Virus record (IMG/VR): IMGVR_UViG_3300008267_000006
Location: 1 to 64,000 of that record
DNA from: a virus
DNA: 64,000 nucleotides
Direction: 5' to 3' (one strand)
Part shown: positions 2,698 to 56,296 of the stretch, piece after piece
How positions within the stretch are numbered: the stretch's first letter is position 1
Layout of the letters: each line of letters begins with the position of its first letter
Program-made: the position numbers and the translations under genes
The notes under the pieces: model-generated
Seen by the model: the letters and a program-made list of their open reading frames with translations, nothing else
What the model was told of the DNA's origin: nothing
The model's database searches: none

Positions 2698-2983
2698 TTA
2701 TCTGCTTCTCTTCTTTCTTTTCCATGCTATATTGGAAGCTTATGTACCCTTTAAGAGTACTATAGCAGTCTTCGATATTTAAGTCAACAAGTGACAATTT
2801 TTGTCTAATTTCATCAAGTTTTTCGAGTTGATAAAGCAGATCATTTTTAGCCGCGACATCTCTAGAGCAATAGTCTAAATCTTCAGATAAAGAATTTAGT
2901 ACATTAGAATTTTCAGATAGGATGTCTCTAATTCTTTCTGGAATGGAATTGATTGGAACCGTGATCATCATTTTTGCGTTCAT
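2672..2983 (-). CDS. Hypothetical helical protein
   Basis: GGAGG RBS before MNAK at 2983. Confidence 0.6.
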   Translation of the reverse strand: MNAKMMITVPINSIPERIRDILSENSNVLNSLSEDLDYCSRDVAAKNDLLYQLEKLDEIRQKLSLVDLNIEDCYSTLKGYISFQYSMEKKEEKQINDATDEQG

Positions 2984-2994
2984 ATACCCTCCAA

Positions 2995-3029
2995 ATAAAA
3001 TGGGACGCATAGCGTCCCATAGTATAACA
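2995..3029 (-). promoter_or_regulatory. Extended -10 element followed by terminator-like hairpin
   Basis: TGTTATACT, then ATGGGACGC-TAT-GCGTCCCAT-TTTA. Confidence 0.45.
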
Positions 3030-29812: not shown

Positions 29813-30257
29813 CTAATTAATCTTGTAATATCCAATGCAACTATCATCAATAGTATAGTAGACCTTCTTAACCCCCTGTGCCTCAAGAACAGCATGACAC
29901 ATTGCACAAGGCTTACTCATTCTTTCTTCACCGCTTCCCTTAGCTGCACGGGCTACATAAATAGTCGCGCCACGGGTAACGTGTCGAGGGAGATTCAAGA
30001 GAGAAGCTATCTCCGCATGATATGTGCTATGTCCCTTGCTGTCGGGACGGTACTTTGCACCAACAGAACAATACTTTTCATTATTCACGCCAAGCCCAAG
30101 AATAGAACTTCCGCCACCAACCAAAACGGCTCCGTGGCGGAAGTTACCATAAGTAGAAGAAAGTGCAAGCTTCTTAGCTAACTGAAAGATACCTCCGAAT
30201 CTTCTTAGAAATATCGTTCTTAGAAAGAATCATATCCTGCGGGCCATCGTTATCCAT
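29813..30257 (-). CDS. Zn-dependent cytidine/dCMP deaminase family protein, interrupted by a +1 frameshift near 30185
   Basis: AGGAG-ATG at 30257, 0-frame stop at 30174; +1 frame gives QLAKKLA..RHGAVLV..HAE..PCAMC. Confidence 0.8.
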
Positions 30258-30269
30258 AGTTTTCTCCTG

Positions 30270-30782
30270 TTATGGTGCTACTGTAACATCCTTCATTTTC
30301 ACAGTCAAGCGATTTTTTGCCTCTTCCTCTAGTTTCTTATATTTTTCATTTTTTTGATTTCTACATTCAGGACAAAGAGTTGTAACCCAGCCATCACCAT
30401 TTGGTGAACCATTATTGCTACAGTTCTCACAAATGCTATATGACATAGCCTCTGCCATAGAGATTAAACCATCAATATATTCATCACTATTGTCAACATA
30501 AAATCTTAGACCACCGTATTTTTCTTTTACTTGTGTTGCCTCTAGTTGAGGGTATCGTGGAGTATCTTTTGGAAGATCACCACGATCTATTTTAAACTTA
30601 ATAGAATTATTTTTATTGTTTATATATGACTGTATTTGTTCACATAATTTATAAATAAGATCATACCAGCCATCTCCGCAATCAAACCCCCAACACATAC
30701 ACGTATGAGTCATTGGTAGACTTCTTTGTGCAAAGATTTCTGGGAAATGTAGATATAGTTTTTCTTGAAGTTCTTCACGCAT
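30270..30782 (-). CDS. Phage hypothetical protein with Zn ribbon
   Basis: CGDGW, QVKEKYGGLRFY, CENC..CPEC. Confidence 0.7.
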   Translation of the reverse strand: MREELQEKLYLHFPEIFAQRSLPMTHTCMCWGFDCGDGWYDLIYKLCEQIQSYINNKNNSIKFKIDRGDLPKDTPRYPQLEATQVKEKYGGLRFYVDNSDEYIDGLISMAEAMSYSICENCSNNGSPNGDGWVTTLCPECRNQKNEKYKKLEEEAKNRLTVKMKDVTVAP

Positions 30783-31098
30783 TCTTTTTCCTTTCAGAAA
30801 GAATTTTAATTACTGCAATTAATATGTGTCCAATATCAGACATGCCATTCTTTTTTAGTTTATTTCGTTTATTTTCTTTAAAGCATTTATTGCATGGAAC
30901 ATAATTCCATTTTTGCAATTTTTTTTGATCGCTTTCATCTAGACTATTGAGGACACTTGCGTATGTCCGTCCAGAAATATAACCATCTATACAACAAAAT
31001 GGAATATTTGAATATTCTCCTTCAATTCTATCAATCGCTTCTTGAATAGATTCTATTGCATAATATAGATTTTCTTTTTTTTCTTTAGACTTCGACAT
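30775..31098 (-). CDS. Hypothetical Cys-containing protein
   Basis: IPFCC..YVPCNKC. Confidence 0.55.
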   Translation of the reverse strand: MSKSKEKKENLYYAIESIQEAIDRIEGEYSNIPFCCIDGYISGRTYASVLNSLDESDQKKLQKWNYVPCNKCFKENKRNKLKKNGMSDIGHILIAVIKILSERKKNA

Positions 31099-52872: not shown

Positions 52873-54648
52873 TTAGCCTAGTAGATCTTGAATTACTACA
52901 AGACCATACATATCTGGGCGAACCATCGTCTTACCATAACGAGTCATTACAGCCTTACGTGGAACGAAGGTGTTAGGATCGAAAATGGTTGGGGTGCTTT
53001 GTAGTGGTACGTATGGGGCATATACGTAACCGCTTTCTAGGAAGCTACCACCTTTACGACCTACTAGGATTACGTTACGTAGGAAGTATGGGTGAACAAT
53101 GATATCCCATTTCTTGTTTAGATCACCAACACGAACAGCACCTACTGAACCTTTTTCATCGGTTGCAGTTACTGATGCGCGGAAACCGCTGGTGAATTCA
53201 AGAATGTTAGCAACTTCTGGACCACATACAAGGAAGTTAGCTCCACCGCGTAGAGTTTTACGATGGATTAGAGCTGAACAATCATTGATGGTTTCAACTA
53301 GGGTTTCATACCACATTTGAACGTTACCAGTGAAATCTGGAGGAGCAGCATAACCACCTGATAGGGTTGAACCTAGATCAGCGCCAGTATCGCGGTTAAC
53401 AAATTTACCTGGACGACGTGACCAGTATTTGACACCGGCAGTTGCGCCCTTGACTAGATCGTTCATGATTTCTTGATCAATTTCTAGACCAATTTGTTCT
53501 GATAACATTGAAGTTAGTTCTACTTCAGCATCTAGATTGTGATAAGCATTTAGATCTTGACCTAGTTCTGGAGTCCATGAAGCTTTTAGCTTACGTGAAC
53601 GAGCAGTGATTGAGTATGAATCGACTTTTAGTTCGATTTCTGGAATTGCTGAAGAACCTTCCATTGTCCATGGGGTTGCACCAACAACAGCACCTAATGC
53701 GCTATCACCAACAGCAACAACATTGTCCTTGACTGGGTATGATAGTAATACGTGTGAAGCGGTTACAACTGCGGCTAGAGCAGCATCACCCTTAGCAGCA
53801 ACTACAACTTCTAGTGATTTCGCACCAGTTGAAGGATCAACAAATACTCTTGATAGACGACGAACTAGTTTAGCACTATTTGCTAGTGAAGAACCAGCAG
53901 CATCTTGTTCACCAGCGGCTACCGCACCAGCATTTTGTGCAAATGATACTGAGAATACGTCATTTTCAGCTAGTAGTTGGCTGTTTGCAATATTAGCAAA
54001 TGGTACGCGTAGTACTGAAGCTGAAACGTAGTTTGAATCAGTTAGTAGATCTGCATCCCAACGTACTGCTTTTTTATCAGCATCAGAAGCGGTTGCTAGA
54101 CCAAACTTGGCTACTTCAACAACGTTTGAAGCAGTGGTTGAAGAGTGATAGCGAGCGGTGTGATAACCGTTTGCCATGTTGTAGAAACCTTTTTCAGCAT
54201 TATCTACACCTTCGATACGAACACCGCCGGTGATTTGTACACCTAGACGATCACCGAAGAATGATTCACCTTTGTTGAATACCTTGTCACCAGTGTTACC
54301 GATATCGCTTCCACGGCGGAAATCCATGAAGAATACTAGACCTGATGGTAGGCTCATTGGTTGTACTGATACTAGATCGTTAGCGATTAGACCAGCGAAT
54401 ACACGACGAACGATTGGGAACGCTACTGAGGCAAAGCCTTGTACGTCACCATTTGACATAGTGTTGGTTTCTTTTAGTAGTTCTTTTGCTTGATTCTCTA
54501 GTAGAATGGACATGGTGCTTTTTTGACGAGCATCCTTTAGACCTTCTAGTAGACCGCTCTTTTCCCATTTAGAAACTAGAGCAGCAGTTTCTTTGAGAGT
54601 ATTACGTTCAACGATACCCTCGGTTAATTTTTCTAATACGTTACCCAT
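52873..54648 (-). CDS. Major capsid protein (T4 gp23-like)
   Basis: KWE..GLL, LLENQ, VRRVF, VQPMSLPSGLVF, SRKLKA.WT.EL.QDL, YAPYVPL, MTRYG. Confidence 0.96.
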   Translation of the reverse strand: MGNVLEKLTEGIVERNTLKETAALVSKWEKSGLLEGLKDARQKSTMSILLENQAKELLKETNTMSNGDVQGFASVAFPIVRRVFAGLIANDLVSVQPMSLPSGLVFFMDFRRGSDIGNTGDKVFNKGESFFGDRLGVQITGGVRIEGVDNAEKGFYNMANGYHTARYHSSTTASNVVEVAKFGLATASDADKKAVRWDADLLTDSNYVSASVLRVPFANIANSQLLAENDVFSVSFAQNAGAVAAGEQDAAGSSLANSAKLVRRLSRVFVDPSTGAKSLEVVVAAKGDAALAAVVTASHVLLSYPVKDNVVAVGDSALGAVVGATPWTMEGSSAIPEIELKVDSYSITARSRKLKASWTPELGQDLNAYHNLDAEVELTSMLSEQIGLEIDQEIMNDLVKGATAGVKYWSRRPGKFVNRDTGADLGSTLSGGYAAPPDFTGNVQMWYETLVETINDCSALIHRKTLRGGANFLVCGPEVANILEFTSGFRASVTATDEKGSVGAVRVGDLNKKWDIIVHPYFLRNVILVGRKGGSFLESGYVYAPYVPLQSTPTIFDPNTFVPRKAVMTRYGKTMVRPDMYGLVVIQDLLG

Positions 54649-55993: not shown

Positions 55994-56296
55994 CTATTGA
56001 CGATTATTTATATTTTTATTTATTGTTTTTTTCTTCTTTTTTGATTTTTCTTCTACTTCTGACATTAAATCTTTGTTATGTTTTTGAGCGTTTCTCTTAT
56101 ATCTCTCTCTTTTTTCACGCTCTTTGACACTTTTCTTCACAAATCTTCTATTCCAAGCACAATTATCATATAAATATTGAACTAAAGACTCTTTGCTACA
56201 AGCTTTAATAAATTTCTTAATTAACTGATCTGTGCTTTCTTCAGTTGGTCTTACATGATCTGGAAGTTTTACTTCTAAATGTACTGCTCTACCCAT
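55994..56296 (-). CDS. rpsU: Ribosomal protein bS21-like protein
   Basis: ESTDQLIKKFIKAC.KE...RRFVKKSVKEREKR resembles the bS21 pattern. Confidence 0.6.
   Translation of the reverse strand: MGRAVHLEVKLPDHVRPTEESTDQLIKKFIKACSKESLVQYLYDNCAWNRRFVKKSVKEREKRERYKRNAQKHNKDLMSEVEEKSKKKKKTINKNINNRQ

Follow-up and report, generated by a model that had tools for sequence, protein, structure and literature searches.

The stretch of DNA analysed here (the window) comprises positions 1–64,000, that is, the first 64 kb, of the 111-kb IMG/VR contig IMGVR_UViG_3300008267_000006. The contig comes from an uncultured freshwater phage, has a GC content of 33% and is 59% complete as assessed by CheckV. A deaminase gene is located on the minus strand within a block of genes for nucleotide metabolism and replication (ribonucleotide reductase (RNR), a DnaB-type helicase, a flap endonuclease (FEN) and UvdE), and a gene for a UvsX-like recombinase is also among its neighbours. 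The genes 5′ of the deaminase (30270–30782 and 30775–31098, both on the minus strand) encode Cys-rich proteins of 170 and 107 amino acids, for which a family search returned only a PHROG of unknown function; the end of the 170-amino-acid gene is syntenic in several relatives. The deaminase gene itself (29813–30257) has a GC content of 44%, compared with 33% for the genome, and uses codons such as CGG, GGC and CCG, which are rare in the phage. This higher GC content and codon choice suggest a mobile gene that was transferred between phages, or unusual codon constraints.

The deaminase is encoded in two frames. The first open reading frame (ORF0) extends on the minus strand from an ATG (30257–30255) to a TAA (30176–30174), encodes 27 amino acids and ends with CGG AGG TAT CTT TCA GTT AGC TAA, with the stop three codons past CTT. 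The +1 frame is open from around 30232 to a TAG (29815–29813). When U 30185 is skipped, 24 codons of the first frame and 123 of the second are joined into a protein of 147 amino acids with the junction RRYL/QLAKK. The features of the locus are as follows.

30264–30268, minus strand: Shine–Dalgarno (SD) sequence AGGAG of the leader ORF, 6 nucleotides (nt) upstream of the ATG, read directly.
30186–30257, minus strand: frame-0 leader of 24 codons, from the ATG to CUU, homologous to the N termini of in-frame homologues.
30192–30196, minus strand: internal SD-like GGAGG, within the Arg-Arg pair CGG AGG (30197–30192); the presumed stimulator, which would pair with the 16S anti-SD.
30189–30191, minus strand: 3-nt spacer UAU, the E-site codon, fixed in length and variable in sequence among relatives.
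30186–30188, minus strand: shift codon CUU (Leu), in the P site; CU is invariant in 51 of 51 distinct split sequences.
30185, minus strand: skipped base U, the first base of the 0-frame A-site codon UCA (30185–30183); in-frame homologues have one base fewer.
30182–30184, minus strand: first +1-frame codon, CAG (Gln); CAG in 45 and AAG in 6 of the 51.
30174–30176, minus strand: frame-0 stop TAA, which ends the 27-amino-acid non-shifted product, read directly.
29813–30184, minus strand: +1-frame deaminase body of 123 codons plus TAG, with HAE at 30019–30011 and PCxxC at 29911–29897.

The original prediction had described this ribosome-binding-site-led ORF and a complete 147-amino-acid deaminase restored by skipping one T. 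Reading of the minus strand bears out every detail of the ORF, and the 24 + 123 codons yield the complete protein, with a Pfam match in the body. Of the Arg codons in the window, CGG and AGG account for just 1% and 5%, respectively. A search of both strands of the 111-kb contig finds the pattern GGAGG-N3-CTYY a single time, at the deaminase site, and among the pattern matches in this genome and five relatives none lies at a frame transition except that in the deaminase gene.

The body matches the Pfam family dCMP_cyt_deam_1 (PF00383) with 44.9 bits (cut-off of 25) and a dCMP deaminase PHROG with an E value of 1e-13, and H56, A57, E58, P92, C93 and C96 are invariant in an alignment of 26 sequences. 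An AF2 model of the deaminase has a pLDDT of 92.1; its top Foldseek matches are mouse, human and Bacillus cytidine deaminases and human dCMP deaminase, with E values of about 1e-5. When the family profile is compared with the PDB, dCMP deaminases rank first and the best match is the dCMP deaminase of cyanophage S-TIM5 (4p9c; E value of 2.4e-6). Both are small (138 amino acids in S-TIM5), come from phages and carry the zinc motifs HAE and PCxxC, although the similarity is remote and the family of the window enzyme has an insertion before PCxxC. The profile alignment with S-TIM5 runs in one continuous stretch through the junction, helix 1 included, which indicates that the leader, encoding the N terminus of the deaminase, supplies the first half of helix 1. 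Matches to the NCBIfam family ComEB reach 18–22 bits (cut-off of 219), and those to cytidine deaminases are also below threshold. The TadA-type tRNA adenosine deaminase, a name given by JGI to some relatives, was found neither in the NCBIfam scan nor among the listed Foldseek and profile matches. The profile and model place the protein among the zinc deaminases of the CDA fold. The enzyme had been described as potentially mutagenic, and this description is not supported: the profile and fold are those of pyrimidine deaminases acting on free nucleotides or nucleosides, the neighbourhood is one of nucleotide metabolism, and the enzyme looks like a pyrimidine deaminase of the nucleotide pool rather than a DNA mutator. 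The simplest reading, given the nearby RNR, is a predicted role in converting dCMP to dUMP in an AT-rich phage.

The same split was sought in homologues, as had been suggested with the original prediction, and was found. Scans of viral and metagenome contigs yielded 115 related loci, of which 69 are broken at the same place, representing 51 distinct 109-nt segments (the window included). The split relatives share 57–88% protein identity with the window and are from more than 25 separate metagenome assemblies. The proposed prfB architecture with identical spacing (GGAGG, 3 nt and, in the window, CUU_U) is conserved in 51 of 51. GGAGG is invariant, preceded by C in 50 segments and by A in one (AGG AGG, still Arg-Arg), and the spacer is always exactly 3 nt in length, with UAU, UUA, UUU, CUU, CUA, ACU and GCG as variants. 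The P-site codon is CUU in 47 and CUC in 4 of the 51, and never belongs to another Leu codon family. The skipped base is U in 24 and C in 27 and never a purine, so that three shift-site types are found: CUU_U (24), CUU_C (23) and CUC_C (4). The 0-frame A-site codon is UCA (24), CCA (21) or CAA (6), and never a stop. The first +1-frame codon always ends in G (CAG or AAG) despite the preference of the phage for CAA (87%) and AAA (81%); in the same genes, six different codons are used for the invariant Arg of the FRHG motif.

Each of the 51 distinct split sequences has an ATG in frame 0 that is preceded by an SD. Leaders in the relatives are 18–35 codons long and 0-frame tails are 2–7 codons long, and the position of the frame-0 stop is not strictly conserved. 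Pairwise differences at the three codon positions are distributed 1119:1117:2048 in the leader, a third-position excess in frame 0, and 4523:2867:12625 in the first 22 codons of the body, again with a third-position excess. Judging from these distributions, both halves of the gene are under purifying selection, each in its own frame.

The window is part of a metagenome-assembled contig and has a single extra base in TTT, features that might come from an indel introduced into the T run by sequencing or assembly, or from a decaying pseudogene. We regard such an origin as scarcely credible. Many assemblies, with 51 distinct sequences between them, share the break, and in 27 of these sequences the extra base is a C that lies outside a T run; this disposes of the earlier caveat of a one-base indel or sequencing error in TTT. 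For the locus itself, the public sequencing runs listed were all of DNA, with no RNA run among them; their contigs were fragmentary, none extended across the gene, and they showed no indel. Neither artefact nor pseudogene agrees with the purifying selection on both halves, and the 68 complete bodies contain no further frame breaks.

Several other observations concern the surroundings of the cassette and its relatives. Positions 30171–30210 of the window are the sole part of a 700-nt stretch with a match of at least 90% in lake metagenome contigs of other phages, in which the flanks are dissimilar. Two relatives (L008 and L012, positions 2956–3000 in each) have a second GGAGG, followed by UAUC or CAUC, 21 nt upstream of the cassette. 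Among cultured phages, a DNA search produced no match and a protein search found only homologues of at most 36% identity, annotated as deoxycytidylate deaminase; no real relative of the deaminase was found in the bacterial genomes searched. Gene callers do not treat the gene consistently. Of 89 protein clusters, at least 38 begin with spurious residues read from the +1 frame (..GG-x-x-Q-LAKK), and many others start at internal Met codons.

Relatives in which the gene is in frame show what the joined product should look like. At least 17 in-frame protein clusters of the same clade read RRYL-Q/S/K/E-LAKK with identical spacing, and the RRYL-Q-LAKK of in-frame clusters is the peptide expected of a +1 slip after the Leu codon; the junction peptide YLQLAK that had been predicted from the window is thus the sequence of in-frame homologues. 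Three close in-frame relatives were compared at the DNA level. L053 reads CGG AGA UAU CUU CAG, in which the skipped base is absent and GGAGG is destroyed synonymously. L028 reads CGA AGG UAU CUU UCG UUA, in which the A of UCAG has been lost and GGAGG is again destroyed synonymously, and L061 reads CUA CGU UAU CUU GAA, in which the first Arg has become Leu and GGAGG is absent. The frame has therefore been restored in at least two different ways, by loss of the skipped pyrimidine or by loss of the A of UCAG (L028). GGAGG is present in 51 of 51 split sequences and in none of these three, a contrast that is not a clean statistic because the sequences share a phylogeny. It is also absent from the site in around 40 marine in-frame relatives (46–53% identity).

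In-frame homologues also help to locate the slip. Read in frame 0, the two codons before the skipped base encode Tyr-Leu, Leu-Leu or Phe-Leu, in agreement with the Tyr-Leu, Tyr-Phe or Phe-Phe of in-frame relatives; read in the +1 frame, they would encode Ile-Phe, Tyr-Ser or Phe-Phe. Slippage at AGG_U or after the next codon would introduce residues (Ser, Pro) that fit in-frame homologues worse, and if the slip came one codon later, many relatives would have a Pro midway along helix 1. In-frame homologues have no counterpart of the extra residue that a −2 shift would insert.

GGAGG is also a perfect SD, and could serve an internal, non-canonical start of the body, with the 27-codon ORF as a separate leader peptide. 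Such a split gene also predicts the loss of GGAGG where the upstream ATG is in frame, and around 15 of the 51 sequences have UUG or CUG as the Leu codon 10 nt downstream. Mostly, however, that Leu is UUA or CUA, no start codon is conserved at a workable distance, and an AUC 1 nt past the SD is not conserved. The +1 frame of the window has no ATG, GTG or TTG before body residue 21, and 22 of the 51 sequences have none of these codons in the +1 frame upstream of the junction. Furthermore, the leader is homologous to the in-frame N terminus and first half of the helix and is selected in frame 0, and an internal start leaves the conservation of CUY-Y unexplained. We therefore consider internal initiation very improbable.

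The break, the conserved cassette, the homology across the junction and the loss of the SD where the frame is restored are seen directly in the comparison of sequences. They probably reflect a programmed +1 ribosomal frameshift of the prfB (RF2) type, stimulated by an SD and with a sense codon in the A site. Ribosomes would initiate at the SD-led ATG at 30257 and translate 24 codons in frame 0. With CUU (30188–30186) in the P site, the 16S anti-SD would pair with GGAGG 3 nt upstream, a spacing known to promote slippage in the forward direction, and the peptidyl-tRNA-Leu would re-pair from CUU to UUU (UUC in many relatives). Non-slipping ribosomes would terminate three codons on to give the 27-amino-acid peptide. 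As the frames are arranged, the enzyme is split, and its full-length product should be obtainable only through the +1 slip. It is reasonable to suppose that the frameshift limits or conditions expression, as had been proposed; slippage would be likely to cap, and could possibly condition, the yield of deaminase. With a sense codon in the A site, there would be no release-factor feedback.

The sequence of the shift site is consistent with this mechanism in several respects. That the skipped base is only ever U or C is consistent with a G34 tRNA-Leu re-pairing on UUU or UUC; at the CUC_C of 4 of the 51 sequences, +1 re-pairing would carry a central mismatch. By analogy with Ty1 (PMC5009743), the fixed G of the first +1-frame codon may mean that fast decoding in the +1 frame matters. 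Of the phage genes, 53% are SD-led compared with a background of 6%, which indicates that the anti-SD is in use in the host of the phage. The A-site codons are common in the phage (UCA is 31% of Ser, CCA 67% of Pro and CAA 87% of Gln codons); there is thus no obvious slow step and the efficiency of shifting could be low. Curran and Yarus reportedly used the RF2 site with sense A-site codons as an in vivo assay, which makes measurable shifting in the absence of a stop codon plausible. A stimulatory SD is located 3 nt from the shift site for +1 and 9–14 nt for −1 frameshifting, and the conserved RF2 shift site is CUU_U (PMC5009743). As for a stimulator in the form of RNA structure, RNAalifold (26 sequences) returned only a mini-hairpin of 4 bp between GGAG and CUUY (−2 kcal/mol), with no compensatory changes, and we discounted this hairpin as the stimulator.

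The +1 reading could also be achieved by a tRNA of phage or host origin that decodes a quadruplet (CUUY), or at the RNA level by polymerase slippage or editing. The restriction of the skipped base to pyrimidines would suit such routes, and near-complete relatives encode 10–26 tRNAs. These are mostly U34 readers, however, including Ser(UGA), Pro(UGG) and Gln(UUG); in the four relatives analysed with ARAGORN all anticodons are ordinary, with no reader of CUU or CUC except possibly Leu(UAG), and no tRNA genes were found in this contig (59% complete). The same findings led us to reject phage tRNAs as the frameshifting agent. For polymerase slippage, the run of U is just 2–3 bases long, and the CUCC of some relatives is too short. 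Neither route explains an invariant GGAGG at 3 nt, and we consider both to be very unlikely.

The original prediction had further proposed a response to the supply of Ser-tRNA(UGA). A sensor specific to this tRNA is not supported, given the variation of the A site (UCA in 24, CCA in 21 and CAA in 6), in which all codons are common; the accompanying caveat that TCA is a common codon was apt (31% of Ser codons in the window). A broader version of a regulatory sensor can be formulated, in which the yield would be set by a race between tRNAs for the 0-frame (UCA, CCA or CAA) and +1-frame (CAG or AAG) codons, together with the availability of the anti-SD. Shifting would then be high early and fall as phage tRNAs accumulate, which would make the cassette a translational timer for an enzyme of the dNTP pool. 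We put this forward only tentatively and think it rather doubtful. As nearly all of the phage tRNAs are U34 readers, their agreement with the A-site codons does not exceed expectation. If the timer is real, the cassette would be a naturally occurring site of the prfB type that responds to the supply of tRNA rather than to a release factor.

In two relatives (G002 and G005, the contigs of loci L026 and L023), tRNA arrays are located about 2.5–7 kb from the deaminase, with 26 tRNA genes. These arrays include the A34 tRNAs tRNA-Ser(AGA) and tRNA-Arg(ACG), both of which would depend on A-to-I editing; bacteria do not usually have tRNA-Ser(AGA), and the deaminase described here is unlike TadA. With regard to the host, the major capsid protein (window positions 52873–54648, minus strand) is closest, at 45–50% identity, to those of Flavobacterium phage ‘immuto’, Microcystis phage Mel-JY01 and uncultured huge phages, and the nearest capsid from a cultured phage is that of the Flavobacterium phage (45% identity). 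An SD core is found at 3% of the gene starts of the Flavobacterium phage, in contrast to 53% here. This argues against a Bacteroidia host, and the host is probably not a member of the Bacteroidia. An ORF of 100 amino acids at 55994–56296 (minus strand) had no match to Pfam Ribosomal_S21 even at E values of up to 10; a real bS21 at this position would bear on the availability of the anti-SD and hence on the frameshift.

We used FastTree to relate the deaminase bodies of 79 split and 19 in-frame distinct sequences. The freshwater clade is well supported and the in-frame forms are scattered among the split forms; parsimony requires 14 changes between the split and in-frame states, at least 5 of which are forced by well-supported branches. 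The cassette is identical across the clade and the two frame restorations differ, a pattern that argues for a single gain followed by repeated losses. In-frame forms have thus arisen repeatedly, which means that the frameshift is dispensable. The break is nevertheless kept in around 80% of distinct sequences, across a clade with 35–40% protein divergence.

These patterns bear on whether the frameshift has a role at all. By the same mechanism but with no regulatory function, a one-base insertion into a context already prone to slipping could have been tolerated as a ‘saviour’ frameshift, with the cassette then kept, as in a neutral ratchet, only because the gene had come to depend on it. The repeated emergence and persistence of in-frame forms, an A-site codon that is not conserved and the lack of an evident link between the enzyme and decoding are in keeping with this possibility. 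Yet a one-base deletion anywhere in the two-frame overlap of around 50 nt restores the frame, and around 80% of distinct sequences (79 versus 19) remain split. We see a neutral origin and maintenance as possible, although unlikely. Retention of the break in the great majority, when one deletion suffices to restore the frame and has done so several times, suggests that the split state is favoured over the in-frame state.

The SD-stimulated +1 shift to which we attribute the split is best compared with that of prfB. Both begin with a frame-0 leader of around 25 codons and encode the main product in the +1 frame (PMC5009743; PMC12421855); they share an internal SD-like element exactly 3 nt before the shift codon, and CUU then U; the spacer in the window, UAU, is even the same as that of Escherichia coli prfB (AGGGGG TAT CTT TGA C). 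The window therefore shows the internal GGAGG, the 3-nt spacing, CUU_U and the short leader of prfB-type sites, and differs in the A site, where the UGA stop followed by C is replaced by UCA followed by G. UCA, CCA or CAA in place of UGA means no sensing of RF2 and no evident product feedback. The cassette is prfB-like in its working and is outside the autoregulatory prfB class, because an A-site stop is absent from the window and from its relatives. It also differs from prfB in that the gene encodes a phage enzyme of nucleotide metabolism, C is also found as the fourth base, and some sites read CUC_C. In RECODE, every +1 entry of the CUU-stop type is a prfB gene (PMC10885494).

Other recoded genes share some of these elements. 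In yeast Ty1 and ABP140 (CUU_AGG_C), peptidyl-tRNA-Leu likewise slips by +1 on CUU while a sense codon occupies the A site, and the outcome depends on competition between 0-frame and +1-frame A-site decoding; these systems are eukaryotic, have no SD stimulator and use a rare ‘hungry’ AGG, whereas the A-site codons of the phage cassette are common (PMC5009743). Listeria phage PSA is a precedent for programmed +1 shifts in phages (CCC_UGA, and CCC_UCC with a pseudoknot), one of them with a sense A-site codon. Those shifts occur on a Pro codon near the 3′ end of capsid and tail genes and give a second, longer product, and the stimulator is a stop codon or pseudoknot and not an SD (PMC5009743). 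The deaminase cassette, by comparison, has no conserved RNA structure, and its shift would be obligatory for the only functional product. Bacillus subtilis cdd is likewise a gene for a CDA-fold deaminase with frameshifting; there, the shift is −1, at CGA_AAG at the 3′ end, and is described as incidental; it yields an extended protein, and production of the enzyme does not require it (PMC5009743). Full-text searches of the literature returned no description of a phage deaminase frameshifted in this manner.

In bacteria and phages, the SD-stimulated CUU_U +1 shift is known essentially from prfB, and here the same hardware is found on an unrelated gene. The cassette has persisted in deeply divergent relatives, and the SD has disappeared where the frame is restored; this is evidence from nature that useful +1 recoding can be supported by an SD, a 3-nt spacer and CUU_Y even when no stop codon is present. 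The cassette is compact and would be suited to in vivo tests of A-site competition. For annotation, the consequence is that gene callers systematically mis-annotate the deaminase. For the phages themselves, the finding points to a predicted translational control of a pyrimidine deaminase that would feed dTMP synthesis in an AT-rich phage.
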